DNA from: Candidatus Omnitrophota bacterium
Lineage (GTDB): Bacteria > Omnitrophota > Gorgyraeia > Duberdicusellales > 4484-171
Direction: 5' to 3'
Length of the DNA: 34,576 nucleotides
Assembly: GCA_041663385.1 (NCBI GenBank)
Contig: JBAYMZ010000001.1
Coordinates: forward strand, 1-34,576
Below are positions 6,318-34,576 of this stretch, piece after piece. How positions within the stretch are numbered: the first letter of the stretch is position 1; each line of letters opens with the position of its first letter. The notes under the pieces were generated by a model. That model saw only the letters and a list, made by a program, of their open reading frames with translations. It was not told the DNA's origin and made no database searches. The position numbers and the translations under genes were made by a program.

Positions 6318-6438
6318 GTTTTACGGTTGCGGTTGCGCAGCTGGTCTCGGTTGCGTTATACGTTAATCGTCATTCATAACGCAACCGAATAACGCTTAAC
6401 GAAACGAGTAGCGTAACCGCAACCAATTAACGCAACCT
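6318..6438. repeat. Family-A intergenic palindromic element, copy 3
   Basis: 12-bp perfect inner stem cggttgcgttat 6348-6359 / ataacgcaaccg 6376-6387. Outer stem ggttgcggttgcg (within 6321-6337) pairs with cgtaaccgcaacc 6412-6424 with 1 mismatch. Tandem GGTTGCG heptamers are present. Lies immediately upstream of the polA start. Confidence 0.8.
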
Positions 6439-12256: not shown

Positions 12257-12288
12257 AATATTATTTTAATTATTATATATTAAAATTT

Positions 12289-12352
12289 CTAATTGCTAAT
12301 GACAAATGACTAATTAATGTCTAATTTTCTAATAACTAATGGCTTAGACATT
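12289..12352. repeat. Intergenic element: six CTAAT words plus a 9-bp inverted repeat
   Basis: CTAAT at 12289, 12296, 12310, 12321, 12329 and 12336. aatgtctaa 12316-12324 pairs with ttagacatt 12344-12352. Ends 1 nt from the stop of the second GalT paralog. Confidence 0.6.
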
Positions 12353-12353
12353 T

Positions 12354-18136: not shown

Positions 18137-19195
18137 TTAAAGGCTCAATCTACCGGTAAAACGGGAAAAAAACCTATCCAAGAAAGCAACAACCGGTTTA
18201 CCTAATCCACAAATAGCAGCCGGTAATAATATAGCATAAATACAGATTTTACAGAAATTACGCAAACTCTTCAAACCCTGGACTAAATATTTCAAAGAAA
18301 AACTTTTCAAGAGCAACTTAACCGCGGTTTTTCTGTCGCCAGCCTTTATCATGTTAGTTGCAATTTTAACATCATCCCAAAATTTATTATAGTCATATTG
18401 CGCTAATACGCCTGGGGTTATCGGTTTGCTCAACGCTGGGGAATCAAGAAAACAATCCAAAACTTGGATAACTTCTGATCTTGTAACCCGCGAACTTTCA
18501 TAAAGTGAGGAAGCTTGACGCGGATGAACTCTGCGCCGGATTAATCTTTCATTAATAACGCCTATTTTATATTTTTCGGCTATCTTCAAATATAAGAAAA
18601 TATCACTCGCTCCGCCCATCCAGTCGAGACACTCATCTAAATACTCCGTAGGATGCATATTTAAAAGAATTTTGCGGCGACCCATAAGCGTTGGGTACAC
18701 TAAAAAACTTCCTGATCGCTTAAGCATGTCCTGGTATAACTCCTCGAACGCATAAACGTTCTTCCCAGCTAATCCAGGGGGCAAATCAACTCCTTTAGAT
18801 ATTATTTCATCGTCTTCATTAATAATCCAATCCCCTGTTGAAACTACCGCTACATCCGAATTATGCAAAAGCATTTCTAATTCAGCAGCCACTATGCCGG
18901 GTTCATAAACATCATCGGCATGATAAACCGTCACGATATCAGAACTTGCCAACTCAAGGCAACGACGAAAATTTTGGTTACCTTCAATATTAGTAGCATT
19001 GCGATAATATTTTATCCGGGAATCGCCAAACGATTTAACCACGCTCTCAGTGTCATCCACTGAAGCATTGTCGCTGACTATAAGTTCAAAATTCGTATGA
19101 GTTTGTGCCAGCAAAGATTGAATCGTGCGGCCAATAAACCGGCCATAATTATATGTTTGAATGGTTAGGCTAACACGAACTCCGGATAAATCCAT
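18137..19195 (-). CDS. Family-2 glycosyltransferase with C-terminal membrane-associated extension
   Basis: SLTIQTYNYGRFIGRTIQSLLAQTHTNFELIVSDNASVDDT (GT-A N-terminus) and the YHADDVY DxD-like motif. Confidence 0.85.
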   Translation of the reverse strand: MDLSGVRVSLTIQTYNYGRFIGRTIQSLLAQTHTNFELIVSDNASVDDTESVVKSFGDSRIKYYRNATNIEGNQNFRRCLELASSDIVTVYHADDVYEPGIVAAELEMLLHNSDVAVVSTGDWIINEDDEIISKGVDLPPGLAGKNVYAFEELYQDMLKRSGSFLVYPTLMGRRKILLNMHPTEYLDECLDWMGGASDIFLYLKIAEKYKIGVINERLIRRRVHPRQASSLYESSRVTRSEVIQVLDCFLDSPALSKPITPGVLAQYDYNKFWDDVKIATNMIKAGDRKTAVKLLLKSFSLKYLVQGLKSLRNFCKICIYAILLPAAICGLGKPVVAFLDRFFSRFTGRLSL

Positions 19196-19197
19196 AG

Positions 19198-20106
19198 CTA
19201 GATTTTCTTAGTTGATTGATAAAAAAATAAATAATTTGTGTAACTCGTATCATCATCCACCAGGCCAAATTTTTCTATTTTTTCTCCGTTAATCACATAA
19301 CATTCATAACCGATATTCCTAAACATTTTAATAACGTCATTGGGGTGATACCCGAATTTTTTCGACCATTTCCTGAGCAGCTCGGAAAAAATTACAGGTT
19401 TATACTTTTTTATAGTCTCGAATCCGCCGTCAAAAACAAGTTTTTCCGCGCCCTCAACATCACATTTTATAAAATCTAACCTATCAACTCCCAGGGTAAA
19501 GAAAACATCATCTAATCTCTTTACCGAATGTTTAACCTTCACGGTGTTTCCACTATCGCGCAAATCAACCATTGATGAGGCACCGCAGCGCTCTTTGTCA
19601 AAGAAAAAGTCAACCTCTTCATTCACGTTTGCTAAACCAAAATTAAACGCGTTTTTAGTTTCCTGGCCGTTTAATGCTAAGTTTTTAATAAGCTTGTCAT
19701 ATATCTCCGGCATGGGCTCAAAAGAGAAAACTTTTATCTCTTTGAAATTTTTGAGCCAATTTAAGGTATACCAGCCTGAGTTGGCCCCAATATCAAGTAT
19801 TACATCCCCATCTCTGACCGTATTCAAAAGAACTTTTGTTTCTGCCTTTTCATACGAAGCAAAATCCAAAAAGGTAAACGGTACAGAAGTAACATCATAA
19901 GGAATACACACCATCTTAATCTGTGCATCGGCACTGCGAAAAGTGAAATAAACTTCGCCCTCTTTTATGGTTATATCCAAGATATCAGTGCCTTTAATAA
20001 AATCAGCATACTCATACAATATTTTATGGGCATCAAACATCTGTGCCATATACTGATACTTATCGAACTGATTACCTTTAAAAGCTTTCTGAATCTCTTT
20101 TAACAT
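19198..20106 (-). CDS. FkbM-family SAM-dependent methyltransferase
   Basis: DIGANSGWYT, FSFEPMP...Y..L..N and DFIKCDVEGAE motifs typical of the FkbM family. Confidence 0.85.
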   Translation of the reverse strand: MLKEIQKAFKGNQFDKYQYMAQMFDAHKILYEYADFIKGTDILDITIKEGEVYFTFRSADAQIKMVCIPYDVTSVPFTFLDFASYEKAETKVLLNTVRDGDVILDIGANSGWYTLNWLKNFKEIKVFSFEPMPEIYDKLIKNLALNGQETKNAFNFGLANVNEEVDFFFDKERCGASSMVDLRDSGNTVKVKHSVKRLDDVFFTLGVDRLDFIKCDVEGAEKLVFDGGFETIKKYKPVIFSELLRKWSKKFGYHPNDVIKMFRNIGYECYVINGEKIEKFGLVDDDTSYTNYLFFYQSTKKI

Positions 20107-21167
20107 TACACACCGCCACCTTTAAGAAAACTTTTAATAGTTCTTAAAAAACCATCTTTAACGCTGAAACGGCACCGATAGCCAATTTTCTCTATTTTTG
20201 CTGTTGACAATACCGGGCGTATTTTGTCCTTATTCTCAAGATAGAAACTGTTGTTGTCGCGGCTGGCGTAAACTACTTTTAATTTTTTTTCCGGGAACAA
20301 AGAAACAAGCAGATGTGCCAGTTTGCCTATCGCCATCTGCCCGTCTTTATTACCAACGTTATAACTTTCACCGGGATTGCCTTTCAATAAAACCCTGAAA
20401 AAACCTTCAGTAGCATCGCTGATATAGCAAAAAGTCCGACAGGCCAAACCGTCACTTTTTAAAACAATATCCTGGCCATTTACAATATTAGAAACAAATT
20501 CCGCAAACACTCTTTTGTCAATTTCTAAATCCATAGCCGGGCCATAGGTATGTTCCGGCCTTACCACAAATGTCGGTATTTTATACTGATAATGCCAACA
20601 CTTACACATATTCTCACCCATACGTTTACTCTCACCATAACAACTACGGACATCCATAGAATCCAGATAACCACTATCCTCCTCACTTATAATATTTTTA
20701 TTAACAGCTCCGCAAACTTCGCCGCTGCTAAAAAACAAAAAACCTTTTGATTTTTTTTCTCTGGCAAGTTCCAATAAGTTATAAGTGCCTAAAATGTTCG
20801 GGGTAATCACATTTATCGGATCGCTGCCATAGAATTGAGAACTGGCTGGGCTGGCGGCATGAATAATATAATCAATTTTTTCTTTAATTTTAAGCTTATC
20901 AACTACATCCGCGCAAATCACCTGGAATAAGGGGCTGTTTAAAAAATCGGCAAAGCGTTTTTTTGCTTTTTCAGGGTTACGGCAAAGCGCTAAAACTTTT
21001 ATATTTAATTCGGGACGGATATCATTCAAATGCATCAAAACAAACACCATATACAAGGGCAGCATCCCATAGGCTCCGGAAATCAAAACCGTACTGTCCT
21101 TAAATTTTTCCCAATCCAAACCACTCGTGCAAATGTTTTCTAAATCCTCTCTAATTATTTCATTCAT
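20106..21167 (-). CDS. Extended-SDR NAD-dependent sugar epimerase/dehydratase
   Basis: Rossmann N-terminus (VLISGAYGMLP), FSSGEVCG, and canonical YGESK (YxxxK). The ORF-track start 21173 is TTG. ATG 21167 is preferred. Confidence 0.85.
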   Translation of the reverse strand: MNEIIREDLENICTSGLDWEKFKDSTVLISGAYGMLPLYMVFVLMHLNDIRPELNIKVLALCRNPEKAKKRFADFLNSPLFQVICADVVDKLKIKEKIDYIIHAASPASSQFYGSDPINVITPNILGTYNLLELAREKKSKGFLFFSSGEVCGAVNKNIISEEDSGYLDSMDVRSCYGESKRMGENMCKCWHYQYKIPTFVVRPEHTYGPAMDLEIDKRVFAEFVSNIVNGQDIVLKSDGLACRTFCYISDATEGFFRVLLKGNPGESYNVGNKDGQMAIGKLAHLLVSLFPEKKLKVVYASRDNNSFYLENKDKIRPVLSTAKIEKIGYRCRFSVKDGFLRTIKSFLKGGGV

Positions 21168-21169
21168 AA

Positions 21170-22330
21170 TCAATATAATGTTATTATTTCGTTGGGCAGT
21201 TTTAGTTTTTCTTTAATCTGCCTGGCAACTTCATCCTGATAAGAATAAGTTGATATCAAAATTGGTATATCATCTTTTATGTCTTTCGGCAATCTTATTT
21301 CTACATTGTTTATTTTTTTACCACTATATCTGCTATTTGAATCCACAAAATACAATATTCTGGAAAGATCTAAACCGGAACCAATAAGCCTCTGGGTGTG
21401 TGTCCCCACGCCCCAAACTATTATCTTTTCTTTACCCTTAAGCTTCTCTTTTAGCTTTTCCTTAATTTCTAAATCCATTTTCCGGCATTTATCAATATAA
21501 TTTCTCAAGCACGGGCCGCAAGCCTCGTCCCTGACAATTGCAAAATCCTGCTCAATCGATTTAGATGATAAAATAAAAAGGTCAGGGTCTACTGTTTGAT
21601 TTACCCGGTTTTCATCTTTCAGCACTTTAACTATATTAAAAAAAGCGCTTGATAATAAATTTACGATTGAATACTGGGAAAAATAATTAATATGTTCAAT
21701 GCTGAATTGCTGAAAAGGGGTAAATATATAAGAATCAAAACGTTCCGCGTCAGGAATCTCAATAAACAACAAACCATTGTCTTTAAGCAGCGCTCGGATT
21801 TTATTCATGGCCGGCATGAAATCAACCAGATGTTCAAGAACTGCCGATAAAATAACCAAATCGAATGTTTCCTTGCTATAAAAATCTGAAATATTACCTG
21901 CTACAGCATCAACACCATATAATCTTTTTACAGAGGCTGCGCATGTTGACGACGGATCAAGCCCTAAAAGGTTTGAATATCCATGTTCCTTAAATAACGC
22001 CAATAGGCCGCCGGTGGAACAGCCAATATCCAATATTTTAGCGTTTTTATCGCTCATATAAGGGGACACAAACTTAACAATTTTTTCAAAATGCTCAGTA
22101 TAATTTTCAGAAACAATACCGTCATCATAATTAAATTCGTATTTGGACATGGCTGCATAATAGCCATTAAATTCTTTTTGCGATGGTATATTGTCGCTAT
22201 ATACAAACCCGCAGTTTGCGCAAAGAACAACATCGTAGCCATCCATTAAAGCAATGACTTTGTTGTTAAAATTCTGTCTGTATAACTGGGTTTTATTCGC
22301 ACAGGAACAAATAGGACAAAGTCTATTCAT
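21170..22330 (-). CDS. Class-I SAM methyltransferase with N-terminal Zn-ribbon and C-terminal Rossmann-like domain (TylCIII-type NDP-hexose C-methyltransferase architecture)
   Basis: CPIC...CANCGF Zn ribbon and SAM motif ILDIGCSTGG. The C-terminal IIVWGVGTHTQRL...YFVDSNSRYSGKKINNVEIRLP resembles the C-methyltransferase C-terminal domain (pattern recognition only). Confidence 0.7.
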   Translation of the reverse strand: MNRLCPICSCANKTQLYRQNFNNKVIALMDGYDVVLCANCGFVYSDNIPSQKEFNGYYAAMSKYEFNYDDGIVSENYTEHFEKIVKFVSPYMSDKNAKILDIGCSTGGLLALFKEHGYSNLLGLDPSSTCAASVKRLYGVDAVAGNISDFYSKETFDLVILSAVLEHLVDFMPAMNKIRALLKDNGLLFIEIPDAERFDSYIFTPFQQFSIEHINYFSQYSIVNLLSSAFFNIVKVLKDENRVNQTVDPDLFILSSKSIEQDFAIVRDEACGPCLRNYIDKCRKMDLEIKEKLKEKLKGKEKIIVWGVGTHTQRLIGSGLDLSRILYFVDSNSRYSGKKINNVEIRLPKDIKDDIPILISTYSYQDEVARQIKEKLKLPNEIITLY

Positions 22331-22347: not shown

Positions 22348-23361
22348 TTAATAAATTTTTTTAAGGCGCTCTACCGCGCCGTCGAGAACGTCTTCGGGAA
22401 ACAACCGATACTTAATAATATCGCATTTAGAACAGACTTTACCTGCAGCGTTAACCCCCTCAAGCATTAGGCGCCTGAATTTTCTAAAATGCTCGCTGTT
22501 CCAAATTTCGCATGCCGATTGATTATTACAGTCGCCAATAATCTCCGGATATTCAAACGAATAGCAGGGCACTACTTTTCCATCCGGGTTTATTTGCATG
22601 GTAAAAAAAGGTTGAGGGCATATTTTTACTTCTGAAACCGGTAATCCGAATTGAGTAACCGGCAAATCATTATTCTTTAATAATTTTCCATAATCTATGC
22701 CATGATGGATAGGCACCGTATGCTCAACAGACAAAGCATCACAAATATCTCCAAAAATATCATAAAAACGCTGCTCATCATTTTTATCTTCTAAAGCCGT
22801 ATCAACTATTTTAATATAAACCTGAGCTTTGCCTTTATTTTTAAAGAAGTATCTCAAATTTTCGATATATTTGTTAAAATCAATATCCACCCCGGAAACT
22901 TTCTTATATTTTTCTTTGGTTGTCCCCTGTACCGATACAACCAATCGCGAAAGGCCGTTCTTTATAAGATTTTTCGAAAGTTCTTTGGTTAAAAGCGAGG
23001 CATTGGTTAAAATCTCTAAAACATTAGCAACGTTTTTAGAGGCAGCATATTTAATCATCGCGGCAATATCTTTATGCAAAAGAGGTTCTCCTATGCCCAC
23101 GAAACGCAAAACTTTTATTTTATCAGGGAACGAAACCATATCGTCAATACATTTCTTATATAGATTAAAATTCATCATAGTGTCATCGGAAATAAAACCT
23201 CGTTTGGCCTTAGCGATAGAAAAAATACAATAGCAGCATTTAAAATTACAGGCATAAACCGGGAATATCTGCACAACAAAAGGAGTCGCCAGTGGCACAA
23301 CATCCGCCAAAAGAGTTCTTTTGCCTCCAGGAGCCTGCCCTCTGATATTTTTAGCCTTCAT
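22348..23361 (-). CDS. Radical SAM enzyme with Cys-rich C-terminal (SPASM/twitch-like) extension
   Basis: CNFKCCYC (CX3CX2C). C-terminal Cys residues in CPQPF...VVPCYSF...GDC...CEIW...CSKCD. ATG 23361 with GAGGT upstream is preferred over TTG 23367. Confidence 0.85.
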   Translation of the reverse strand: MKAKNIRGQAPGGKRTLLADVVPLATPFVVQIFPVYACNFKCCYCIFSIAKAKRGFISDDTMMNFNLYKKCIDDMVSFPDKIKVLRFVGIGEPLLHKDIAAMIKYAASKNVANVLEILTNASLLTKELSKNLIKNGLSRLVVSVQGTTKEKYKKVSGVDIDFNKYIENLRYFFKNKGKAQVYIKIVDTALEDKNDEQRFYDIFGDICDALSVEHTVPIHHGIDYGKLLKNNDLPVTQFGLPVSEVKICPQPFFTMQINPDGKVVPCYSFEYPEIIGDCNNQSACEIWNSEHFRKFRRLMLEGVNAAGKVCSKCDIIKYRLFPEDVLDGAVERLKKIY

Positions 23362-23375
23362 CGCCAACCTCTACG

Positions 23376-23870
23376 TTACATGTATTTACGATATAATTTA
23401 TGAAACTTTAGAATATTTTTGGGGCAATTGTCGTGCCATTTTAAATATCCTGGATCTTTTTCAGACAGCCCCTCATTCTTTGGTACAAACTTACCGGAGA
23501 CAAAACACTTATATAATATTGAAATAAAATGACTTCTTACTTTGAGTTCGGGATGAATAAGTTGAATTATTGCTAAGGGCACTTTTTCAAAACTGATACT
23601 AGTTCCTATTTCGGTTTTTGCGACCTTTTTGATTCTGGCTTCTATTGTTTCCTTAAACCTGACAATACCACCAGGAACATGCCAACCCTTGCCGCAATGC
23701 TCATCATCCCGCCAAGCCAAAAGAATACGCCCGCGTTCATCCTTGATTAAAAGATCCACATTTACCAAAGGTGTTGTTTTGCTAATGTAATAAAACAATT
23801 CTTGCGGCAACCCCAGCTCAGGCTTAGGGGCCTTTTTGCTGAGAACAGCTATAGCCTTTGTTATATTCAT
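23376..23870 (-). CDS. NUDIX hydrolase, GDP-mannose mannosyl hydrolase (Gmm/WcaH)-like
   Basis: Nudix box GGIVRFKETIEARIKKVAKTEIG preceded by GKGWHVPGG, which resembles the Gmm-type nucleotide-sugar hydrolase signature. Confidence 0.75.
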   Translation of the reverse strand: MNITKAIAVLSKKAPKPELGLPQELFYYISKTTPLVNVDLLIKDERGRILLAWRDDEHCGKGWHVPGGIVRFKETIEARIKKVAKTEIGTSISFEKVPLAIIQLIHPELKVRSHFISILYKCFVSGKFVPKNEGLSEKDPGYLKWHDNCPKNILKFHKLYRKYM

Positions 23871-23927: not shown

Positions 23928-25007
23928 CTATTTTACCTTATTAAACAGGATTTGAGTCTTGTCTTCATCATTAAAAACCTCGTCGCAGGGAACAGGCAAG
24001 GATTTTCCGTAAATCTTTTTAACCACATATTTGTCAATAAAATCACGGTCCTCGGCAATAAGGCAAGTGTCTACATGCCCCCCAAAATATTTGATATTCA
24101 GGCCCCGTTGAATTATATCTTTTAACGGCTCTTTAAAGACGTTGCCCAGCGACGTATGAATATACGGGCAAGGCAGGACATCGCCATATTGAGTTACGGA
24201 AAACATTCCTTTAACCGCGATACAACCCATATTTAGCCCATAAGCTGGCGTCAAATGAGTGAACACTTTATATTTTTTTTCAAGCGTTTCCATGTATTTC
24301 ATATCAGCTTTATTTACCAAAACATCAAAGTTGCCTTCCCAGGCACCAACGGGCTTAGCATAAGTCACAAACACACCTATACCTTTATTATTAAAGTACT
24401 CAACAAATTTAATGAACTCTTCACTATAAAGCCTTTGCTTAGTGACTACAGTTTGTATGAAAATAGCCAACCCGGCGCCTAAAACCGCATCAATCGCTTT
24501 GATGGCTCTTGCATGCGAACCTTTAGCCCCTCTAAAACTATCGTGCTCTTCGGGATTCAAACTATCGATACTTAATTGTATGCGGTCGATACCAATGCTT
24601 TTTAGATGCTTAGCTCGTCTTTCATCTAAAAGCCATCCGTTGCTATCACAGTTAATATAAAACTTTTGCGGATCGATAGACGCCACCAAAGCGTCTAAAT
24701 CTTTAAACACCAGCGGTTCTCCGCCGGTAATTGTTACCCGGGCCAGGCCAAGTTCATCTGCTTGACGGAAAAGATCCTTTACGTCAGCTATGGTAAATTG
24801 ACGCTTAGATTCTTTCCCCTGAAACCCTTTAACCGAACAATGCTGACATGCTAAATTGCAGGCATAATTATATTGAAATTGGATAATCGCGATGCTTTCC
24901 CCGCGTTTAAACTTTTCTTCAAATTTTAAGATTTTCGTGTAAACATACGGCTTCTCATTTTTTAATTTATTACGGTTATCTGTTTCTTGTGGTTTTAATT
25001 GTCCCAT
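23928..25007 (-). CDS. Radical SAM enzyme (MoaA/PqqE-like core with C-terminal Cys motif)
   Basis: CNLACQHC (CX3CX2C), GGEPL glycine motif, and C-terminal GDVLPCPY...C..ED Cys residues. Confidence 0.85.
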   Translation of the reverse strand: MGQLKPQETDNRNKLKNEKPYVYTKILKFEEKFKRGESIAIIQFQYNYACNLACQHCSVKGFQGKESKRQFTIADVKDLFRQADELGLARVTITGGEPLVFKDLDALVASIDPQKFYINCDSNGWLLDERRAKHLKSIGIDRIQLSIDSLNPEEHDSFRGAKGSHARAIKAIDAVLGAGLAIFIQTVVTKQRLYSEEFIKFVEYFNNKGIGVFVTYAKPVGAWEGNFDVLVNKADMKYMETLEKKYKVFTHLTPAYGLNMGCIAVKGMFSVTQYGDVLPCPYIHTSLGNVFKEPLKDIIQRGLNIKYFGGHVDTCLIAEDRDFIDKYVVKKIYGKSLPVPCDEVFNDEDKTQILFNKVK

Positions 25008-25008
25008 A

Positions 25009-26817
25009 CTAATCCTCTAGAGGCTTAACAAGCATATTCTCTTTAAATTCTTGCCGGTCTAAAAACGGCCACATATCCTCCATGGGTTTGGAGGTTACTG
25101 TACCATCAGGATTTAATTTAGAAACTACCCGCGGCGCGACAACTTGATCAAGAGAAACAGCTACCTCACAAATAACTGGTCCCGGCATTTTCAAAACTTT
25201 ATTTACTTTTTGTTTTATGCCGCTATGATTTTTAATGCGCGCAGTTTTAATACCATAAGCTTTGGCCAACTTAATAATATCAGGCAAAGTCAGGCCGCTG
25301 GAAGCATCACAAGCCACTAAATGACCGGAAAAATTATTTTTCTGAGTAGCCTTAATTGAAGCGTACCCGCCGTTACTTAAAATAAAATATTTTATAGGCA
25401 GCTTCAGACGCCGCAGTGTTTCTAATTCCTGAATGTTAAGTTGAAATCCTCCGTCGCTATTTATGCAAATCGTTCTCTGCCTTCCTGACGCAAGGCAGGC
25501 GCCGATACTAGCCGGCAAACCAAACCCCATCGCGCCGAGCCCCGGCGTATTAATAATCCGCTGGCCGGCCTTAACTTTAAAAGACTGCATAAATAATTCA
25601 CTGCATTGGCCGGAGCTTCCCGGGACGATCACGTCATTGCTTTTTAAAACATCGGACAACACATCAATCAAAATATAAGTATTAACCGCGCTTTTTTCTT
25701 TTCGATATTCCGGCAAAACAACCGGATATTTATTTTTCCACTCTGCGCAGCGCCGCAGCCACGCTATTCGATTATTAACCTTTATTTGCTTTTTATTTTT
25801 CAAAACTTCTTTCATAAAAGCTCCAGCATCAGCACAAATTGAGACATCGGCTTTAAATTTAAATTTTTTAATTTCATTAGGATCTATATCTATAATCACT
25901 TTGCTGGCTTCCCGGGCAAAATCTTTATGATTAAAAGCTAATTGAAGTAAATCCATGCGGGTGCCAAGCATGATGATGCAATCGCTGTTTTGCTGAATAA
26001 AATTAGCTCCCCGCTGGCCGATAATTCCCGGACGGCCAAAATAAAGATTATGACTTTCTGGAAGAAAATCAGCAGATTTCCAGGTAAGAAGTATTGGTAT
26101 ATTTAAATATTGCACAAGCGCACGAAAATCTTCTAGCGCGCCGGCTAAGCGTACGCCATTACCGGCAAGCAATACCGGACGCTCGGCTTTGTTAATGAGA
26201 GCTATAAACTTACCAACACTGCTTTTTAATTGCTCATCATTTTTTGATGCTTTAGGCAACAAAAAACTTTTTAGTTTAGTTTCATCAATCATAGCTGATT
26301 GCACATCTAACGGTATGTCCAACCATACCGGGCCGGGCCGGCCGCTTTTTGCTAAATATACTGCCTTCTCCAAATGATAACGTATGTCCTCAGGCTTATC
26401 CACTCTAACAACATATTTCGTTATCGGTTTAACCATAGGCACAATGTCAATCTCTTGCGGCCCCATTTGGCGCACGCCATGCAATAACGCTGAATCAGCG
26501 CGTTTAACCTGGCCGGAAAAAATTATTAAAGGTGTTGAATCCAGCCAGGCACCGGCTATCCCAGTAATAGCATTAGTGCCTCCCGGGCCGGAAGTTACCA
26601 CAGCTACGCCCAAATTTCCGCTATATTGACTGTAGCTTTCAGCACCAATAGCACAAGCCTGCTCATGGAGGTTACAAACATATTCTATTTCTTTATATTT
26701 ACCGACTGAATCAATTAAATGCATACAGCCACCGCCAGGCAATAGAAATACATGCCTTACGCCTTGCCGGACTACAAATTTAAATACATAATCAGAAAGT
26801 TTAATCATTGGGCACAT
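25009..26817 (-). CDS. Thiamine-diphosphate-dependent enzyme, acetolactate-synthase-large-subunit family (YerE-like candidate)
   Basis: GPGGTNAITGIAGAWLDSTPLIIFSGQV in the Pyr domain. ThDP-binding motif GLGAMGFGLPASIGA...SDGGFQLNIQEL...N. About 600 aa. The start may be ATG 26808. Confidence 0.85.
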   Translation of the reverse strand: MCPMIKLSDYVFKFVVRQGVRHVFLLPGGGCMHLIDSVGKYKEIEYVCNLHEQACAIGAESYSQYSGNLGVAVVTSGPGGTNAITGIAGAWLDSTPLIIFSGQVKRADSALLHGVRQMGPQEIDIVPMVKPITKYVVRVDKPEDIRYHLEKAVYLAKSGRPGPVWLDIPLDVQSAMIDETKLKSFLLPKASKNDEQLKSSVGKFIALINKAERPVLLAGNGVRLAGALEDFRALVQYLNIPILLTWKSADFLPESHNLYFGRPGIIGQRGANFIQQNSDCIIMLGTRMDLLQLAFNHKDFAREASKVIIDIDPNEIKKFKFKADVSICADAGAFMKEVLKNKKQIKVNNRIAWLRRCAEWKNKYPVVLPEYRKEKSAVNTYILIDVLSDVLKSNDVIVPGSSGQCSELFMQSFKVKAGQRIINTPGLGAMGFGLPASIGACLASGRQRTICINSDGGFQLNIQELETLRRLKLPIKYFILSNGGYASIKATQKNNFSGHLVACDASSGLTLPDIIKLAKAYGIKTARIKNHSGIKQKVNKVLKMPGPVICEVAVSLDQVVAPRVVSKLNPDGTVTSKPMEDMWPFLDRQEFKENMLVKPLED

Positions 26818-27394: not shown

Positions 27395-27409
27395 AAGCAA
27401 TTTTCTAAT

Positions 27410-28915
27410 TTAGTCCAACCAGTCAGTTAATAAAGTTTTACGATTTTTGTTTTCGCTTATTTTAGGATCAGTATAATAGGAATCATCCTTATAATGCGTT
27501 GAAGAAATCTCTTCAATTACAGTTCCGCCTTTAGTGCTAAAGCTATGCCTTACGCCTCTCTCTACAACAACCACATCTCCCGGATGACAAACCTTATCCT
27601 TGCCGTCAAGCTTGATCTCTATGTCGCCGTATAAAACGTTGAATGTCTCTTCTTTTTCTTTGTGGTATTGCTCCGGATGGGCTTGCCCAGGCATCAGAAC
27701 AATAATTTTTTTACAGTACTCACGATTTATGCAATTTATAATAACTCCGCCGTAACGTTCAAAATCATCAATCCCGTAATGATAAGATATTTCCAGCCCC
27801 AGCTGGTTAGGCACAACCACACCACTTTTCCTTATAATTTCTTTAGCCTGCGAAACAATTTTATATACCTTTTCCCGTAATTCTACAATTTTTACGTCCT
27901 TAAAAAATACAGCCTGTTTATTGCCAATGTTAATTTTAGCATAAAATTCAGTATATTTGGAAACCTCACTGGCAGATATCTGCCCATCAGCAATAGGTAT
28001 AGCGAAAAACAATTTTGCCGGATCTATTTTATCTCCTGCCTTAATCGACTCGGAAACAAACGCACCTCTCTTTAATGCCCGTAAATCATTTAACTCTTTC
28101 TCGCTAAATTTATACCGTTCACCGTAAAGTCCGCAAAATGTTAAAGCTTCCTGCGCGGCCGATAACCAACCAAAAATCTCTTGCGGCATTGCCGAATAAG
28201 CATTCAAACTATCCGGGCCATCTTTAACCCCAACATGCTTTTCAAATATAGTTGCTCCTTTAGAAATTGCCAGTTTTACAGACTCAACGCTGCTACCTGT
28301 CTCATGGTTAGAATAACCAATTTCCATACCGGGATAACGCCGCTTAAGAAAATCTATTTGATTAAGTTGTAGATTTTCTTTTAAGGTGGGGTATTCTGAA
28401 ACGCAATGCAGAAGCGAAAGTTTCTTATCACGATGCAGAAAAAAACTTACAACCCTGTCGATGTCATCAACAGTAGCCCCGGCCACTGAAGCAATAATCG
28501 GTTTATCAGTTTTGACTATCCGCTCAAGCAAAGGCCAATCCGTAAAAGAACAACTTCCAAGTTTGATTATATCCCAATCCTGTTTTTCAATAAGCCCCAC
28601 GGATTGCTCATCAAAAGGCGTGCAAATTGAAACAAAGCCGCATTTATCTATCTCTTCCTTGAGGCGTAAAAATTCTTCTTCTTTCAGCCTGGTCTGGGAA
28701 AACCGCTTTATGTGCTTATACTCATGCCTGCCTTTAAAATCAGGATGGATAAAAGTGTCTAAATCGCGGTATTGAAGTTTGAATGCAAAATTGAAAGGAA
28801 ATTTTTTACTTACCTCGTATATTTCCCTTACAATCCTTAATCCGTGTTCTAATTTTCCCATATGATTATTGGCCATCTCAAAAATAAATAACGGCCGCAA
28901 ACTAATATTACTCAT
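27410..28915 (-). CDS. NeuB-family ulosonic (sialic-acid-type) acid synthase fused to SAF domain and a C-terminal cupin (D-lyxose/D-mannose isomerase-like) domain
   Basis: NeuB signatures IFEMANNHMG, GYSNHETG and EKHVG. SAF-like KRGAFVSESIKAGDKI. Extra ~130-aa C-terminus MPGQAHPEQYHKEKEE...GD..V...G..HSF...EEISSTHYKDDSYYTD. Length is 501 aa versus ~340 for typical NeuB. Confidence 0.8.
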   Translation of the reverse strand: MSNISLRPLFIFEMANNHMGKLEHGLRIVREIYEVSKKFPFNFAFKLQYRDLDTFIHPDFKGRHEYKHIKRFSQTRLKEEEFLRLKEEIDKCGFVSICTPFDEQSVGLIEKQDWDIIKLGSCSFTDWPLLERIVKTDKPIIASVAGATVDDIDRVVSFFLHRDKKLSLLHCVSEYPTLKENLQLNQIDFLKRRYPGMEIGYSNHETGSSVESVKLAISKGATIFEKHVGVKDGPDSLNAYSAMPQEIFGWLSAAQEALTFCGLYGERYKFSEKELNDLRALKRGAFVSESIKAGDKIDPAKLFFAIPIADGQISASEVSKYTEFYAKINIGNKQAVFFKDVKIVELREKVYKIVSQAKEIIRKSGVVVPNQLGLEISYHYGIDDFERYGGVIINCINREYCKKIIVLMPGQAHPEQYHKEKEETFNVLYGDIEIKLDGKDKVCHPGDVVVVERGVRHSFSTKGGTVIEEISSTHYKDDSYYTDPKISENKNRKTLLTDWLD

Positions 28916-30045
28916 TTCTTACCCCCAATAGTTGAATAAACCTTGCAATTCTTGCAAACTTGAGGAAACCGGTTAGATTTAAGAGTGGATAAAAAGCTTT
29001 TAAATTCTTTTGAACGCCAAAAATTACGAAAATCCCCTTCTAAAAGATTCATAAAAGCATTATTCTTCTGAAATTCCCTGTCATTAGCTTCATTTAACAC
29101 ACAGCAGGGTTGAATATGGCCGCTGGATAAAATAAACGGTTCGCTCCATTTTGTGCACATAGAAGGGCATTGTTTACGGCTTATATTTTCGTTCCAATTA
29201 ACAAAAATTCCCTTTTTGTGAGCTGCCTCCTCTATTTTATTTTTTAATTCCTCAGAAACATTATCAACTCGCAAATCTTTTGTCTCTTTAAAATCCATCA
29301 GGCCGGTATAAAAAATTAAGGAAGCTGCTTGAGGTACATCCTTCATCAGCTCAGCTACAAAATCCACATAAGCAAGCATTTCCGGATAATTATATTTGTT
29401 GATGATAAAATGAAACCAAACCTCCGGCAGCAAGGCTTTTTTGCGCTTTTTTATTTCAAAAAAGGTTTTTATGTTAGCAATAACTTTTTCAAAATTTGCC
29501 CCAACTCTTATTTTCTCGTAAGTCTCTTTTGTTGTAGCTTCGATAGATAACCATATCCTGTCGATATTTAAATCAATTATTCTTTCAGCAATCTTATCAT
29601 CCACAAGCGTAAAAGTATCATAAAATTCAACATACATGCCTTTTGACTTAGCATATTCCAGCATTTTCATATAATCTGGATTCAAAAAAGATGAGCCTAT
29701 GCCGGTAAGGCCTAACCACTTAAGCCGCGGAAATTGATCAACTATCTGCCTGAATTGAGCATAGCTGAGATCCCTGACAGGCTCCTTCCAAAAAGTATGT
29801 TCACAAATCACGCAACGCAAATGACAGCGAGTAGTTGGTTCTATCTCAATGGCTTCAGGATAGGGCGTAAGCGCGGGAAACCTTCTCCATAAAGGATCAA
29901 ATAGCGCGATTCCTGAATCTCGGGTTACTATCGCGCTCCATAAATAACAATAAGCGTTTCGAAACTTACCTCTAGCTAAAAGGTATAAAGTATTTCTTAA
30001 GCGTGAGCCAACCATCCCTAAAAATTTTAAACGACGCGCATCCAT
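28912..30045 (-). CDS. Radical SAM enzyme with Cys-rich C-terminal (SPASM-like) extension
   Basis: CHLRCVIC (CX3CX2C). C-terminal CPSMCTKW...GHIQPCCVL...CKNCKVY. There is a 4-nt ATGA overlap with the downstream NeuB-like gene. Confidence 0.85.
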   Translation of the reverse strand: MDARRLKFLGMVGSRLRNTLYLLARGKFRNAYCYLWSAIVTRDSGIALFDPLWRRFPALTPYPEAIEIEPTTRCHLRCVICEHTFWKEPVRDLSYAQFRQIVDQFPRLKWLGLTGIGSSFLNPDYMKMLEYAKSKGMYVEFYDTFTLVDDKIAERIIDLNIDRIWLSIEATTKETYEKIRVGANFEKVIANIKTFFEIKKRKKALLPEVWFHFIINKYNYPEMLAYVDFVAELMKDVPQAASLIFYTGLMDFKETKDLRVDNVSEELKNKIEEAAHKKGIFVNWNENISRKQCPSMCTKWSEPFILSSGHIQPCCVLNEANDREFQKNNAFMNLLEGDFRNFWRSKEFKSFLSTLKSNRFPQVCKNCKVYSTIGGKK

Positions 30046-30057: not shown

Positions 30058-30786
30058 TTATAAATGTTCAAAATAGCTTCTTGTTTTATCTAATTCATCT
30101 TTATAGTTAACGTTTATGTAATCCGAACAGATCACAAATGGCTTAACCACCTTTCCATCATCAATCGCGCACTGAATAAGATCGGGTAATTCTTTTTGCA
30201 TCCTCTGCTGATTTATCGGAGTATGTTTTATGTAATCTAAGATCGCATTTTTAAATATACAGTTTCCTGTACCCATAAAATCGTTTATCGGGTTTCGAGG
30301 CTTTTCTACCAACCGCCAGATACGAGCATCGTTATCCGTAAATATCGTGTAGGTTTTTTTGATAAGGTTTCTATCTGTTACTTTCAATACTCCGCAAAGC
30401 GCAAACACCTTACTGCTTATAAATTCCTGAATAAATTCTTTATGCCTGGCGTTAATCATAACCTCATCGCCAAGCATTAACATGAAATCGTCTTTGCCCA
30501 ATGCATCTTTAGCGCATTCTATGGCATGCACAAGCCCAAGTTGTTCTTCCTGTTTAATATAAATAACAGGCTTGCCTTGATACGACTCTCCAAAACGCTT
30601 GATGATATCCTCTGCTTTATAACCCACAAGCAGGATTATTTTGTCTATCTCTTTTAGATTAGCAGCTGCATTAAGGCTGTATTCAATTAAAGGCTTTCCA
30701 GAAACCTCTAAGAAGCATTTATTGACTACTTCTGTAACGCTGCCGATTCTTTTACCTCGGCCGCCGGCTAAAATCAAAGCCTTCAT
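30058..30786 (-). CDS. Sugar-1-phosphate nucleotidyltransferase (RmlA/GlmU-type NTP_transferase fold)
   Basis: MKALILAGGRGKRI (GxGxR signature) and a GDEV motif. ATG 30786 with GGAG upstream is preferred over TTG 30801. Not a CMP-ulosonate synthetase type. Confidence 0.85.
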   Translation of the reverse strand: MKALILAGGRGKRIGSVTEVVNKCFLEVSGKPLIEYSLNAAANLKEIDKIILLVGYKAEDIIKRFGESYQGKPVIYIKQEEQLGLVHAIECAKDALGKDDFMLMLGDEVMINARHKEFIQEFISSKVFALCGVLKVTDRNLIKKTYTIFTDNDARIWRLVEKPRNPINDFMGTGNCIFKNAILDYIKHTPINQQRMQKELPDLIQCAIDDGKVVKPFVICSDYINVNYKDELDKTRSYFEHL

Positions 30787-30790
30787 TGTT

Positions 30791-31822
30791 TTAATCTCCA
30801 AATAAATCAGGATTAGTTTTAATCCAATTAATTAAATTTTCTACTCCTTGGCGCGGCTGGACTTTTGGCAACCAGCCTAAAGCATTAAACGCTTTTTGGC
30901 TGTTACAGGCAAAATACAACAAATCACCAAACCTGCCGGGACAAAATTCTATTTCAGGTTTCTTGCCTAAAATATCAGCAATCATACTTATACATTCCAA
31001 TAAAGAAATCATGGTAAGTTTTCCACCGCCGATATTATAAATACCGGGAATTTGCTTTTCATAGAACGCGTTAAAAGCCGCCACCAAATCAGAGGCATAA
31101 AGTATATCACGAACCTGTTTACCTGTTCCATAAACCCGCAAAGGCATATTTTTAATCGCCCGGATAGCAAAGTTAGCAACCCAGCCATGATCCTCTCCGC
31201 CAAGCTGACGCGGTCCGTATAAGCCGGTTAAACGAAAACTTGCAGCTTTAACTTTGTAAGTATCGGCATACACTTTGACATAAAAATCAGCCGCGGCTTT
31301 TGAGGCATGCAAGGGCGTTAAAGTTCCACCCAATACCGGGTAATTTTCATCAATTAATTCTTCCTTACGTAAATAACGGGTATCTGCTTGTGTCAACTCC
31401 TCATTAAGTTTATTACCGTAAATATGTATCGTGGCACAGCTGACCACAGGGATTTTGAATTTGCGGGCAGCTTCCAGCACATTTATTGTCCCCATAACAT
31501 TGGTAGTAAAATCCAGTTCCGGATCTTCTTCGCTAATCGTCATAGCCGGTTGAGCCGCAGTATGAATAATAAAATCACATTCCTTAGCATACTCAAATAA
31601 AGCTTCCCGGTTACGAACATCCTCTTTAATCAGTTCCACTCCTAATGCTTTTAAATAATTCCAGTTATAGCCTCTGGCTGAATCTGTATTATAGCCGGTA
31701 CGCATTAATTCGTGCTTAGTCATGTTGTCATATGAAATAACTTTGACTCCAAGCTTAGCATAATATTCGCAGCACCATGAACCAATAAAACCGCAACCAC
31801 CGGTAACAAGAATTTTTTTCAT
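30791..31822 (-). CDS. Extended-SDR, CDP-paratose/tyvelose 2-epimerase-like, with non-canonical active-site segment
   Basis: GGCGFIGS, AAQPAMT, GEDHGWVANF and GTGKQVRDILYASDL resemble the RfbE family. The expected YxxxK position reads LHASK. Confidence 0.8.
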   Translation of the reverse strand: MKKILVTGGCGFIGSWCCEYYAKLGVKVISYDNMTKHELMRTGYNTDSARGYNWNYLKALGVELIKEDVRNREALFEYAKECDFIIHTAAQPAMTISEEDPELDFTTNVMGTINVLEAARKFKIPVVSCATIHIYGNKLNEELTQADTRYLRKEELIDENYPVLGGTLTPLHASKAAADFYVKVYADTYKVKAASFRLTGLYGPRQLGGEDHGWVANFAIRAIKNMPLRVYGTGKQVRDILYASDLVAAFNAFYEKQIPGIYNIGGGKLTMISLLECISMIADILGKKPEIEFCPGRFGDLLYFACNSQKAFNALGWLPKVQPRQGVENLINWIKTNPDLFGD

Positions 31823-32985
31823 TATTTACCCTCTTTCGTTGCTTGTTGAAAAATATCAATATACTGACGGCTAAATTTATCCCAAGTTAAATTTTCTTTC
31901 ACCCAAACTGAAGCCTTTGAAGCTTGCTCTTTATATTTTTGGTACGAATTATGGATATTGATTAAAGCGGAAGCTAAATCTTGCGTTACAGTGCCTAAAT
32001 TATTATCCTGAACTAACGTTGCCGCGCCCATCTGTGGATAAACCACAACCGGAACAGCACAGGATAACGCCTCAAATACCGATAGATAACCGCCTTGTAA
32101 TTTTACTGGAAACACACACAAATTACAAGCCGAATACAAATCATAAACATCTTCCTTATTAAGCATGCCGGTAAAAATCACCTTTCCAGGCAGAGAAAGT
32201 TCAGAAACTTCTTTTTTAAGGCTCGCGGCATAAGCTCCGCTATCATTGCCGGCTAAAATTAATTTTGCCGAAGGAATTTTATCTGTAATTTTAGAAAATG
32301 CCTGGATTGTATCTTCCTGATTTTTAGCCGGAGAAATCACCCCTACTTGCAAGAGCACAAAAGAATCATCGCTTAAACCATATTTGCTTAACACCTCTTT
32401 TTTTGAAGCCTTTCCAAAATCAGCAGGCGGCTTATCTATGCCGTAAGGAGTTAAAATCGCAGTTTTACCGTAACGCTGTTTAACCGTTTCTGCGTTAAAC
32501 CGATCAGCCGCGCATATTACATCTACGCTGGAGTTAATTATTGTTTTATCAAGTTTTACTCCAAACCAACGTACAAGCTTAAGAGGCAGGGAAAGTTTTT
32601 TGTTATTATAAAAATCAGGAATCTCATTGCACAGCCAGACTGTTGGTTTATCGATTCCAAGCCCAACCCAACTTGCAGGAAAATTATGCAAGTTGATAAC
32701 ATCAAAATCTTTACAATATCGCTTAATTAATTTTCGTAAGTAATATATCTCTTTAAATATGCCAAGCGACGACAAAAAAGAACGGCTGCGGAATTCATAT
32801 TTAAATTTAGTTTCCGGGGTAACTATATTTATCCCCTTACATTTATCCGCTACCTCCTTAGAAAGATTAAGCGTAAGTACAGTATTCTCCACTCCCAAAC
32901 GGGTAAGGTTTAATGACAACTCTTTTACTACCTGTTCTGCCCCGCCATAAAGCCCCATAAATCGATTAACAATTAAAACTTTCAT
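31822..32985 (-). CDS. GT4-family (GT-B fold) glycosyltransferase
   Basis: N-terminal MKVLIVNRFMGLYGGAEQVV and C-terminal GGYLSVFEALSCAVPVVV (E..E-type motif). Confidence 0.85.
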   Translation of the reverse strand: MKVLIVNRFMGLYGGAEQVVKELSLNLTRLGVENTVLTLNLSKEVADKCKGINIVTPETKFKYEFRSRSFLSSLGIFKEIYYLRKLIKRYCKDFDVINLHNFPASWVGLGIDKPTVWLCNEIPDFYNNKKLSLPLKLVRWFGVKLDKTIINSSVDVICAADRFNAETVKQRYGKTAILTPYGIDKPPADFGKASKKEVLSKYGLSDDSFVLLQVGVISPAKNQEDTIQAFSKITDKIPSAKLILAGNDSGAYAASLKKEVSELSLPGKVIFTGMLNKEDVYDLYSACNLCVFPVKLQGGYLSVFEALSCAVPVVVYPQMGAATLVQDNNLGTVTQDLASALINIHNSYQKYKEQASKASVWVKENLTWDKFSRQYIDIFQQATKEGK

Positions 32986-33938
32986 TTTTTTAAATGTTTT
33001 GCTCCGGCTAATTCCAAATCACATATTTCAGCACAGGGAGAATGGCAAATTGTGTCGCCTTGACGCAGCTTAAAACTTCCATCAAATAAATTACCCATTC
33101 TAAAAATATCCCGGCTGTCAGCTCTGCCCTGATAAGGCAAACATTCAGAATAATAATAGCCCTCCATGCAGCTATAAACATTTCCGTTAGATATCATTAT
33201 AAAAAAACCGCTGCCGGCTTTACATTTCTTAGGAGAAAAATCATTAAAATTGTATCCTCTTGTCCGGTTGGGCGCGATAAAACCTTTCTTTTTGTATTCT
33301 TCAATTAAACTAAGCTCTTTCTGGCTATATTCATATCCGGGTTCTTTATAGGTATCAACTTTAAAAGCTGCCAAGCCTTCTTTTTCAAAATATCGCTTTA
33401 ACTCAGGAATTAAAGCGATCTGTTTAGGGTGCGCCACAAAATTTACCGTAATATTTTTAAAACCATGCGCATGAATTTCTTTCAATCGAGATAAAAGCTC
33501 TTCTTTAGTAGCCATTGAAGGATGGAAGCTGGCCATTATCCGAAAATTTTTATTTCTCACGGCATAAAGACGGTTTAAATTTACGCTTAAATTCGTAACC
33601 ATTGATGAAATAACATGTTTTGAAGGAAAATTATCAATTAATTCGGTAATATCTTTATACAAAAGAGGTTCTCCTCCGGTGATAGTAAAAACTGAAGGTG
33701 GAAAATTTTCAAAAACCTTAACCCAGTCCTGCCATGAACGATACGATGATTTTAAATTGTCCGGAGTAAAACGATTCCAAATACAATAAGGACAATTATA
33801 GTTACACCCCAAAAATGGTAAAAAAATTACATTCCTGACTCCAGGGAATAGCTTTCGATAATAAGGCAGCAGGGCTTGCCGCAACCTTTCAGGAAGAAAT
33901 GAATTAACTTTTTTTAAAATAGAAATAAAAAGATTCAT
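32982..33938 (-). CDS. Radical SAM enzyme
   Basis: CNYNCPYC (CX3CX2C), TGGEPLL, and C-terminal Cys residues (CKAG...SCMEGYYYSEC...CHSPCAEIC). Confidence 0.85.
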   Translation of the reverse strand: MNLFISILKKVNSFLPERLRQALLPYYRKLFPGVRNVIFLPFLGCNYNCPYCIWNRFTPDNLKSSYRSWQDWVKVFENFPPSVFTITGGEPLLYKDITELIDNFPSKHVISSMVTNLSVNLNRLYAVRNKNFRIMASFHPSMATKEELLSRLKEIHAHGFKNITVNFVAHPKQIALIPELKRYFEKEGLAAFKVDTYKEPGYEYSQKELSLIEEYKKKGFIAPNRTRGYNFNDFSPKKCKAGSGFFIMISNGNVYSCMEGYYYSECLPYQGRADSRDIFRMGNLFDGSFKLRQGDTICHSPCAEICDLELAGAKHLKK

Positions 33939-33953: not shown

Positions 33954-34576
33954 TCATCGACAACCAAGATTATACCCCAGAAAATTCCATGCTCCGCGAA
34001 GTTTTCGGTAAAGATCTGAAAGAGAGTGTGTATCCAGAAGAAACTTCAGCATAAAGCCGGGACGAAAATAAAATTTTTTAAGCCCCAAATCCACATAATG
34101 GTTGATTTTTTCCTGGCTAATCCCAGGGTATTCAACAATACCTTTTTGCTCACCGGCTGAAAGCCAGCATCGCCAGTCTTTAGTTTTAAGCCAAGCTTCT
34201 TTTTCCGCCATCTCAAAAAATTTAGTTCCGGGAAACGGCACAGCTCCTGAAAATTGCAAGGTATCGCAATTAAGCGACATGGCAAACTCTACAGTTTTTT
34301 TAGCTGTACTTTCAGTTTCCCCGGGTAAACCAACAACAAAACATCCATGAACCTTAAAACCATGCTTATGAGCAGACTCGAGGAACAAACGGGAATCTTC
34401 GAGCCTGATATTTTTGTGGCTCTTATCAAGAATTTCCTGGCTGCCGGATTCAAAACCCGCTAAAAGCTCCCGGCACCCGGCTTGCCGCATTATTTTAAAC
34501 ATTTTTTCATCGAGGCTGTCGACTCTGGCATTAACGGAAAAAGTTATTTTTAAGTTGCGCCGCAAAATCTCTTCAC
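33954..34576 (-). CDS. Class-B (B12-binding-domain type) radical SAM enzyme, C-terminal part only (5-prime end beyond window)
   Basis: GFESGSQEILDKSHKNI, FVVGLPGET and QFSGAVPFPGT are typical of the radical-SAM core C-terminal half of B12-rSAM proteins. The frame stays open to the window edge, and the track start at 34565 is an internal TTG. Confidence 0.75.
   Translation of the reverse strand, partial: EEILRRNLKITFSVNARVDSLDEKMFKIMRQAGCRELLAGFESGSQEILDKSHKNIRLEDSRLFLESAHKHGFKVHGCFVVGLPGETESTAKKTVEFAMSLNCDTLQFSGAVPFPGTKFFEMAEKEAWLKTKDWRCWLSAGEQKGIVEYPGISQEKINHYVDLGLKKFYFRPGFMLKFLLDTHSLSDLYRKLRGAWNFLGYNLGCR

Follow-up and report, generated by a model that had tools for sequence, protein, structure and literature searches.

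In the 34,576-nucleotide contig of a Candidatus Omnitrophota metagenome-assembled genome (MAG) considered here (contig C1; this whole stretch is referred to as the window), the open reading frame (ORF) at positions 25009-26817 encodes a thiamine diphosphate (ThDP)-dependent protein which, judging from its sequence, is a YerE-type branching enzyme of the JanthE clade and not an anabolic acetolactate synthase. We consider it probable that two proteins encoded directly upstream, namely, a NeuB-cupin fusion and a HAD phosphatase, make a 3-deoxy-2-keto sugar acid, and that the ThDP enzyme adds this acid to a nucleoside diphosphate (NDP)-4-keto sugar, yielding a long acyl branch. Under the same reading, the sugar produced would be C-branched and nucleotide-activated, and would enter a glycan located at the surface or linked to protein.

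The ThDP protein contains the Pfam TPP_enzyme_N, TPP_enzyme_M and TPP_enzyme_C domains (E-values of 7e-33 to 1.6e-34), with translation probably starting at Met4. Catalytic Glu52 forms part of an HEQ triplet, D455, N482 and G484 are retained as Mg ligands, and alignment revealed R287 and D289 of the RxD motif to be conserved. The ThDP motif itself (GDG-X(24-27)-NN in general) reads S454-D-G, i.e., SDG rather than GDG. As such, the possibility that the gene is decaying was considered, and was rejected given that the protein departs from the family at only three of 134 highly conserved columns, a value in the normal range for family members. The serine represents a natural variant of the motif, a second exception beside the cysteine of JanthE, which is active with CDG at this position (PMC12188165). 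The first-pass annotation of this DNA had placed the gene between a radical SAM gene and a HAD phosphatase gene; its coordinates for the ThDP gene proved correct, and both neighbors were found (at 23928-25007 and 26801-27400, respectively). Indeed, the start of the ThDP gene overlaps the 3' end of the latter, its stop abuts the former, and the gene is translationally coupled to the surrounding glycan genes.

Family membership was next addressed by ranking solved structures. The best match was 8rph (421 bits; E-value of 8e-125; spanning residues 5-595), followed by 5ahk (281 bits), which we take to be the YerE homologue PpYerE, with structures of acetohydroxyacid synthase (AHAS) scoring 253 bits or less. 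According to the literature, 8rph is JanthE, a YerE-like carboligase from Janthinobacterium sp. HH01 that is also represented by 8rpi and 8rpj. At least 150 cluster representatives are nearer to the ThDP protein of the window than is JanthE. A genuine acetolactate synthase, anabolic or catabolic, found in a sugar operon by chance would be in line with the best NCBIfam matches being AHAS models and with the annotation of relatives as 'acetolactate synthase large subunit'. The best of these models, TIGR00118 (biosynthetic AHAS), was nonetheless matched at 399.9 bits, as compared to a cut-off of 538.35 bits, and every AHAS equivalog cut-off in NCBIfam was missed by a wide margin. Moreover, the same MAG contains a true ilvB on contig C221, encoding a 556-residue protein that scores 670 bits to TIGR00118 and followed by an ACT-domain ilvN. 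With this IlvB, the structure ranking is reversed, E. coli AHAS I reaching 630 bits. In the window, the gene content confirmed the earlier statement that ilvN, ilvC and ilvD are lacking. A plasmid search by tblastn returned true ilvB genes only, at 31-34% identity.

Differences from AHAS were also apparent at the level of motifs, with GMLGMHG and RFDDR of AHAS being replaced by GRPGIIGQR and R-M-D-L-L-Q in the ThDP protein, and with two 9-residue insertions found in the window clade being absent from AHAS in the alignment. In AHAS, the carboxylate of the keto-acid acceptor is bound by the Arg of RFDDR. A maximum-likelihood tree was built from 77 sequences, with E. coli IlvI, B. subtilis IlvB and the IlvB of the MAG serving as root. 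In this tree, AHAS was split from all 74 other sequences with 100% support in the SH-like approximate likelihood ratio test (SH-aLRT), the ThDP protein of the window fell within a NeuB-linked clade (97% support) beside sequences from Acidobacteriota and Bacteroidota, and ThDP enzymes linked to HMGL-type aldolases formed a clade of their own (100% support). As the window sequence sits next to those of other phyla, the module is taken to move horizontally. Because of the sub-cut-off score, the JanthE/PpYerE ranking, the separate clade and the ilvB-ilvN pair on contig C221, an AHAS identity was set aside; with the coupling to glycan genes also speaking against it, this identity retains next to no credibility. 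The protein thus does not cluster with AHAS, the genome has another ilvB, and the first-pass assignment as YerE-type instead of IlvB stands.

The family to which the protein belongs is large. Homologues at approximately 60% identity number in the thousands and, when one genome per species was scanned, carriers were found in at least 598 species genomes from more than 20 phyla. Among 150 other sampled genomes of the window's own phylum, Omnitrophota, 20 contain a ThDP relative. For neighborhood analysis, 80 loci were kept and all ORFs within 10 kb were clustered, with upstream counts being based on the 61 loci offering at least 4 kb of upstream sequence. The loci kept come from Omnitrophota, Chloroflexota, Acidobacteriota, Verrucomicrobiota, Bacillota, Bacteroidota, Nitrospirota, Planctomycetota, Elusimicrobiota, Woesearchaeota and others, and two of the 80 belong to cultured species, namely, Vallitalea maricola AN17-2 (locus L034) and Terriglobus albidus DSM 26559 (locus L044). 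A recurrent gene order was observed, corresponding to rfbF, the gene for glucose-1-phosphate cytidylyltransferase (TIGR02623; 443 bits, above the cut-off), a short-chain dehydrogenase/reductase (SDR) gene, rfbH (NF011936; 709 bits), the NeuB-cupin gene, a HAD gene and the ThDP gene, after which come variable tailoring genes. Of the 61 loci, 47 encode the NeuB-cupin fusion, 38 encode RfbH and 36 encode a HAD phosphatase; in five, the ThDP gene adjoins one for an HMGL-type aldolase in place of NeuB. The rfbF counts are underestimates, since one ORF cluster (C17) proved to be an antisense artefact within rfbF and was rejected.

HAD proteins from families that are not related to one another (cluster C06, the KdsC-like cluster C09 and the HAD_2 cluster C27) occur in the phosphatase slot, a KdsC-like HAD protein occupying it in 16 relatives and a HAD_2 protein in others, and in some loci a SIS sugar-phosphate isomerase is encoded next to NeuB. 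The ThDP enzyme is also found fused to HAD_2, to a mannose-6-phosphate-isomerase (PMI)-type cupin, to radical SAM/SPASM and to methyltransferase domains (P0125, P0147, P0197, P0199, P0215 and P0249), the HAD_2 fusion being seen in one cluster representative. Three further relatives (P0128, P0133 and P0203) bear N-terminal extensions of approximately 200-260 residues without a Pfam match. A cytidine monophosphate (CMP)-ulosonate synthetase (CTP_transf_3) is encoded in one of the 80 loci, and none was found on the window contig or on contig C6, which continues it. This argues that the NeuB product is not activated in the manner of a sialic acid-type sugar in these loci. What was directly observed comprises the domains, the family to which the protein belongs, its separation from AHAS and the conserved neighborhood. 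In three loci without NeuB (L079, L082 and L052), a divergent 340-residue protein lacking a Pfam match (cluster C32; e.g., L082 8497-9516, minus strand) is encoded upstream of a KdsC-like HAD-ThDP pair; this protein may be an unrecognised donor-making enzyme.

The two putative donor-making proteins of the window were then considered. The solved structure nearest to the NeuB-cupin fusion is the uncharacterised 3g8r (368 bits), with true sialic acid synthases scoring approximately 75-82 bits. For the 199-residue protein encoded between NeuB-cupin and the ThDP enzyme, no Pfam match was obtained. It contains HAD motif I (DxDx(T/V), here WDVDDVL), and D9, D11, T95, K138 and D153/D154 are conserved. 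When an AlphaFold2 model of this protein (pLDDT 93.5) was submitted to Foldseek, the strong matches were all HAD phosphatases, deoxyribonucleotidase-like proteins coming first. Comparison with the KdsC-like family by hhalign gave a match over only 20 columns, and PDB profile matches were sub-significant. Motif I and the predicted fold accordingly define the protein as a predicted HAD phosphatase, holding the slot taken in relatives by the KdsC-like HAD or HAD_2 proteins.

In the proposed pathway, the cupin domain of the NeuB fusion would isomerise a sugar phosphate, which the NeuB domain, given the chemistry of its family, would join to phosphoenolpyruvate (PEP) to generate a phosphorylated 3-deoxy-2-keto (4-hydroxy-2-oxo) sugar acid. 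Once the phosphate had been taken off by the HAD phosphatase, the ThDP enzyme would decarboxylate the keto acid and attach the resulting acyl-anion equivalent at the 4-keto position of an NDP-4-keto-deoxyhexose. As suggested by homology to JanthE and YerE, together with synteny, a tertiary alcohol bearing a long polyhydroxy-acyl branch would be formed. Tailoring of this product may then fall to the radical SAM enzymes, the C-methyltransferase, an SDR and the NUDIX protein. NeuB-type reactions, in which PEP is condensed with an aldehyde, yield acids of the 4-hydroxy-2-oxo class. Such acids, made by aldolases, were shown to be the donors taken by ErwE, MMAR_2332 and MyGE, with cytidine diphosphate (CDP)-4-keto-3,6-dideoxy-D-glucose being proposed as the common acceptor on the way to erwiniose, caryophyllose and gastriose (Steitz et al., 2022; PMC9306805). 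As the NeuB reaction gives rise to the same class of acid, we read the module in the window as the same scheme, with NeuB supplying the acid.

The first-pass annotation had instead looked to the classical YerE reaction, in which pyruvate provides a two-carbon acetyl branch to an NDP-4-keto sugar, as in yersiniose-type sugars. In that case, the same glycan would receive an unrelated nonulosonic or octulosonic acid from the NeuB-cupin and HAD proteins. In favor of this reaction, the class was founded on YerE (PMC12247030), pyruvate is among the donors taken by JanthE, the nearest relative of solved structure, and the combination of a UDP-glucuronate decarboxylase (UXS)-like SDR with a ThDP enzyme-derived acetyl branch has a precedent in the everninomicin literature. 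At the same time, NeuB-cupin and the phosphatase are the most constant neighbors of the ThDP gene, fusions of the ThDP enzyme to HAD and cupin domains exist, an aldolase takes over where NeuB is missing, and 79 of the 80 loci are without a CMP-ulosonate synthetase, leaving no local means of activating a free-standing ulosonic acid. The precedent of a branching carboligase in a glycan locus therefore held, but the two-carbon pyruvate branch is not the best fit, given that the conserved partners are NeuB-cupin and a phosphatase or, in a few relatives, an HMGL aldolase; the classical reaction paired with an unrelated ulosonic acid is, on balance, unlikely.

Alternatively, the ThDP enzyme could act on the NeuB product alone, with no NDP-keto sugar being involved, either as a plain decarboxylase releasing a 2-deoxy-aldose or in an AHAS-like manner, with the ulosonic 2-keto group serving as acceptor for hydroxyethyl-ThDP. 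Such activity would be consistent with an operon without rfbFGH and with other members of the AHAS superfamily being simple decarboxylases or using keto-acid acceptors. It is less readily reconciled with the absence of the RFDDR Arg, with the nearest characterised relatives being ketone-accepting carboligases, or with the presence of rfbFGH alongside the module for 38 of the 61 relatives, among them the nearest neighbors of the window in the tree. These considerations render action on the NeuB product alone highly improbable, and transfer of the NeuB-derived acid to an NDP-4-keto sugar is retained as the preferred reading.

As to the acceptor, this is in relatives almost certainly CDP-4-keto-3,6-dideoxy-D-glucose, made by the adjoining rfbF-rfbG-rfbH genes. 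At the end of the window operon, where the first-pass annotation had described a decayed RfbH/DdhC-like gene, a 56-codon stub is indeed present, sharing 48% identity over 52 residues with the N-terminus of the MAG's intact RfbH. Another Omnitrophota locus (L006) is collinear with the window for the ThDP, radical SAM, NUDIX, radical SAM and methyltransferase genes, at 62-81% identity, and continues past the methyltransferase with an SDR gene and an intact rfbH, such that the stub is seen as the remnant of a downstream rfbH. The further proposal that the pathway was rewired after loss of 3-deoxygenation could not be established, since the same MAG contains an rfbF-rfbG-rfbH set on contig C121 and another intact rfbH beside a second ThDP paralog on contig C58. 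With rfbH being a stub here, the acceptor would be either supplied in trans by the rfbFGH set of contig C121 or a different NDP-keto sugar.

The second module, on contig C58, comprises genes for an SDR, an HpcH/HpaI aldolase, the ThDP paralog, a HAD protein, RfbH and a PgfS-like GT2 glycosyltransferase, in that order (L086 477-7058). The paralog shares 46% identity with the window protein and scores 387 bits to JanthE. From its gene content, this module is assigned to the classical aldolase-type branched-sugar arrangement, as in the published scheme.

Several points weigh against addition of a NeuB-derived acid to an NDP-4-keto sugar by the enzyme of the window. The operon, on contigs C1 and C6 together, contains no rfbF, rfbG or intact rfbH, and the link between the window and contig C121 consists of their belonging to the same MAG, which is 78% complete with 2.3% contamination. 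The serine of the ThDP motif is unique to the window protein among 196 family members, of which 194 have Gly and one has Ala at this position. The tree was built without YpYerE, ErwE, MMAR_2332, MyGE and JanthE, so that nearness to YerE was judged by the solved-structure scores. Finally, the donor, acceptor, product and order of steps are inferred, for this enzyme as for the NeuB-linked family as a whole.

The features of the glycan operon are listed in Table 1. All genes of the window lie on the minus strand, and the region from 16595 to the right edge forms a single tightly packed glycan operon.

Table 1. Features of the glycan operon in the window, from its upstream (right) to its downstream end.
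Feature	Position	Strand	Basis or remark
HpnJ-like B12-binding radical SAM enzyme, C-terminal part	33954..34576	-	completed in frame (476 aa) by contig C6
Radical SAM enzyme, STM4011-like	32982..33938	-	
GT4 glycosyltransferase	31822..32985	-	
CDP-tyvelose 2-epimerase-like SDR	30791..31822	-	
Sugar-1-phosphate nucleotidyltransferase (NTP_transferase), AglF/RmlA-like, not RfbF	30058..30801	-	
Radical SAM/SPASM enzyme, not conserved in relatives	28912..30045	-	
NeuB-family synthase with C-terminal sugar-isomerase-type cupin (fusion)	27410..28915	-	proposed keto-acid donor maker
Predicted HAD-fold phosphatase, deoxyribonucleotidase-like, 199 aa	26801..27400	-	motif I, AlphaFold2/Foldseek
ThDP carboligase, YerE/JanthE-like	25009..26817	-	602 aa; Pfam, NCBIfam, structure ranking, tree
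Radical SAM/SPASM enzyme	23928..25007	-	collinear with the ThDP gene in 16-19 relatives, median 67% identity
NUDIX hydrolase, GDP-mannose mannosyl hydrolase-like	23376..23870	-	
Radical SAM/SPASM enzyme, second conserved one	22348..23367	-	
Probable sugar C-methyltransferase, distant TylCIII/TcaB9-type	21170..22330	-	
Extended SDR, intact YGESK	20106..21173	-	best solved relatives UDP-glucuronate decarboxylases
FkbM-family methyltransferase	19198..20106	-	
GT2 glycosyltransferase	18137..19195	-	
RfbH (E1 3-dehydrase) N-terminal stub, 56 codons	17811..17981	-	similarity to the MAG's intact RfbH
Wzx-type flippase (Polysacc_synt), last gene of the glycan operon	16595..17743	-	

The radical SAM/SPASM enzyme encoded directly after the ThDP enzyme likely carries out a tailoring step. 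The product of the putative sugar C-methyltransferase gene contains a 4-Cys Zn ribbon, a methyltransferase core and a C-terminal domain with WGxG..DSN..QGK, in keeping with the three-part layout that the first-pass annotation had described. Whereas no direct Pfam match to Methyltransf_13 or Methyltransf_14 was obtained, even at an E-value of 1 or less, alignment of its family by hhalign with a family bearing these domains gave a probability of 99.8% (E-value of 8e-28) over 355 columns that include all three domains, and its profile matches TylC3 (4rv9; E-value of 3e-17), KijD1 and TcaB9. Profile comparison thus points to a distant place for it within the sugar C-methyltransferase superfamily. 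The predicted sugar-1-phosphate nucleotidyltransferase was likewise found in the operon. In the case of the SDR encoded upstream of it, described earlier as CDP-paratose epimerase-like, the likeness to tyvelose/paratose epimerases was upheld, CDP-tyvelose 2-epimerase being best (solved-structure scores of 170 bits for 9rl0, 160 for 1orr, 125 for GalE and 105 for RmlB). The YxxxK region of this protein nevertheless reads T-P-L-H-A-S-K, and because the catalytic Tyr is replaced by Leu, its role is uncertain, with the protein appearing to be either a non-canonical enzyme or inactive. The second SDR, with its intact YGESK, could be a side-chain reductase or the maker of another NDP-4-keto sugar.

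Elsewhere in the window are rho, coaE, glgA, polA, a TPR protein gene, secG, tpiA, pgk, gap, two galT-like genes, tyrS and rpsA. The two galT-like (Gal-1-P uridylyltransferase/DUF4921) genes are arranged in tandem between the glycolysis genes and tyrS (11255-13361). At positions 1-90 and 6403-6437, the window carries a repeat of approximately 80 bp that recurs, at 82-97% identity, on over 20 further contigs from this genome; its presence at the left end is probably why the contig stops there.

The right end of the window (34514-34576) and contig C6 share an overlap of 63 identical bases, and joining them restores the complete HpnJ-like B12-radical SAM gene. Contig C54, which also carries the N-terminal portion of a B12-radical SAM gene, was considered as the upstream continuation and rejected, as the contig ends do not match. 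On contig C6 (L085 1-5525), two GT2 genes and a gene for an 849-residue STT3/PglB-type oligosaccharyltransferase with a WWDYG motif lie upstream, and directly upstream of the latter (L085 5675-12658) are genes for three type IV pilins, along with pilC and two copies of pilB. As the join brings in an STT3-type oligosaccharyltransferase, the glycan operon resembles a protein N-glycosylation locus. Each pilin contains three to four NxS/T sequons at similar positions, and the pilins may be the targets of glycosylation. STT3 genes were detected in 55 of 150 other sampled Omnitrophota genomes and in none of ten bacterial controls, the only controls matched being the four archaeal ones. Among five ThDP-carrying genomes of the phylum, no linkage between the oligosaccharyltransferase and ThDP genes was seen, with the former being present in two, both times on another contig.

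Taken to its furthest extent, the gene content of contigs C1 and C6 could describe a hitherto undescribed higher-carbon sugar, in which a 7-9-carbon ulosonic acid is placed on an unusual NDP-4-keto sugar, remodelled by up to five radical SAM enzymes and attached by STT3 to pilins as an N-glycan. This full scenario is quite doubtful. It invokes an acceptor other than a 3,6-dideoxyhexose on account of the decayed rfbH of the operon, the UXS-like SDR and the presence of a nucleotidyltransferase of a different kind.

To our knowledge, YerE-like enzymes are the only decarboxylase-type ThDP enzymes to acylate unactivated ketones, and they are wanted as biocatalysts for the generation of chiral tertiary alcohols. 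The gene in the window is part of a very large branch of this class, with carriers among hundreds of species, in many phyla that are uncultured and in some archaea, and the conserved partners predict sugar-acid donors larger than any tried so far and hence unseen surface sugars of at least 12 carbons. Provided that the two contigs do join, pilins may be decorated with this sugar by way of an N-glycosylation system that is rare in bacteria. The YerE-like enzyme class and the general scheme of acyl-branched sugars are already published, and an in silico study predicting over 200 YerE-like enzymes is cited in a review (PMC12247030). No description of the NeuB-cupin/phosphatase donor arm, of the radical SAM set or of the size and spread of the clade was found in a search outside of which lay the primary papers on JanthE and on the in silico YerE survey, and none of the full-text matches listed was a paper linking NeuB or sialic acid synthase to YerE-like enzymes or branched sugars.

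When compared to known systems, the window enzyme shares with AHAS (IlvB/IlvI with IlvN) its superfamily, domain order, approximately 31-34% identity, the Glu of HEQ and a GDG...NN-type motif. It differs in having no adjoining IlvN, in scoring below the equivalog cut-off, in its altered RFDDR motif, in its two insertions and in its separate clade. With JanthE it shares a three-domain layout that includes a C-terminal extension, as well as a non-canonical first residue in the GDG motif (CDG in JanthE and SDG in the window protein), whereas the Tyr of JanthE that contacts flavin adenine dinucleotide, a cofactor drawn as structural in the middle domain of JanthE, corresponds to Ile according to our own reading of the alignment. 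JanthE takes long and hydroxylated 2-keto acids as well as ketone acceptors (PMC12188165, PMC12247030). The YerE/YerF system of Y. pseudotuberculosis O:VI (yersiniose A), compared here through PpYerE alone, similarly relies on an AHAS-superfamily ThDP enzyme encoded in a glycan locus, the C4 position of a CDP-dideoxyhexose being converted into a tertiary alcohol. There, however, the donor is pyruvate and the branch is of two carbons, and no NeuB or HAD partner has been reported for YerE.

The proposed donor arm recalls the routes to 3-deoxy-D-manno-octulosonic acid (KDO; KdsD-KdsA-KdsC) and 2-keto-3-deoxy-D-glycero-D-galacto-nononic acid (KDN; KDN-9-phosphate synthase and phosphatase), in which an isomerase, a PEP-dependent condensation and then a HAD phosphatase act in turn. 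Isomerase, PEP-dependent synthase and phosphatase thus look like a KDO-like trio, yet the synthase here is of the NeuB type, a CMP-activating enzyme is missing from the operon of the window and from all but one of the family loci, and the product, rather than being nucleotide-activated, is proposed to be passed to the ThDP enzyme. Finally, in the unifying scheme for branched sugars (PMC9306805), represented by ErwE/ErwF/ErwI/ErwJ, MMAR_2331/2332 and MyGE/MygI/MygF, a C-C bond-forming enzyme likewise makes the acid that a YerE-like enzyme adds, with reductase and glycosyltransferase genes being found within the same cluster. The module described here differs from that scheme in that the proposed donor maker is a PEP-dependent NeuB-cupin protein acting with a phosphatase, implying phosphorylated sugar substrates, in that two to five radical SAM enzymes are attached and the window operon is without an intact rfbH, and in that the branches are probably longer and more hydroxylated.

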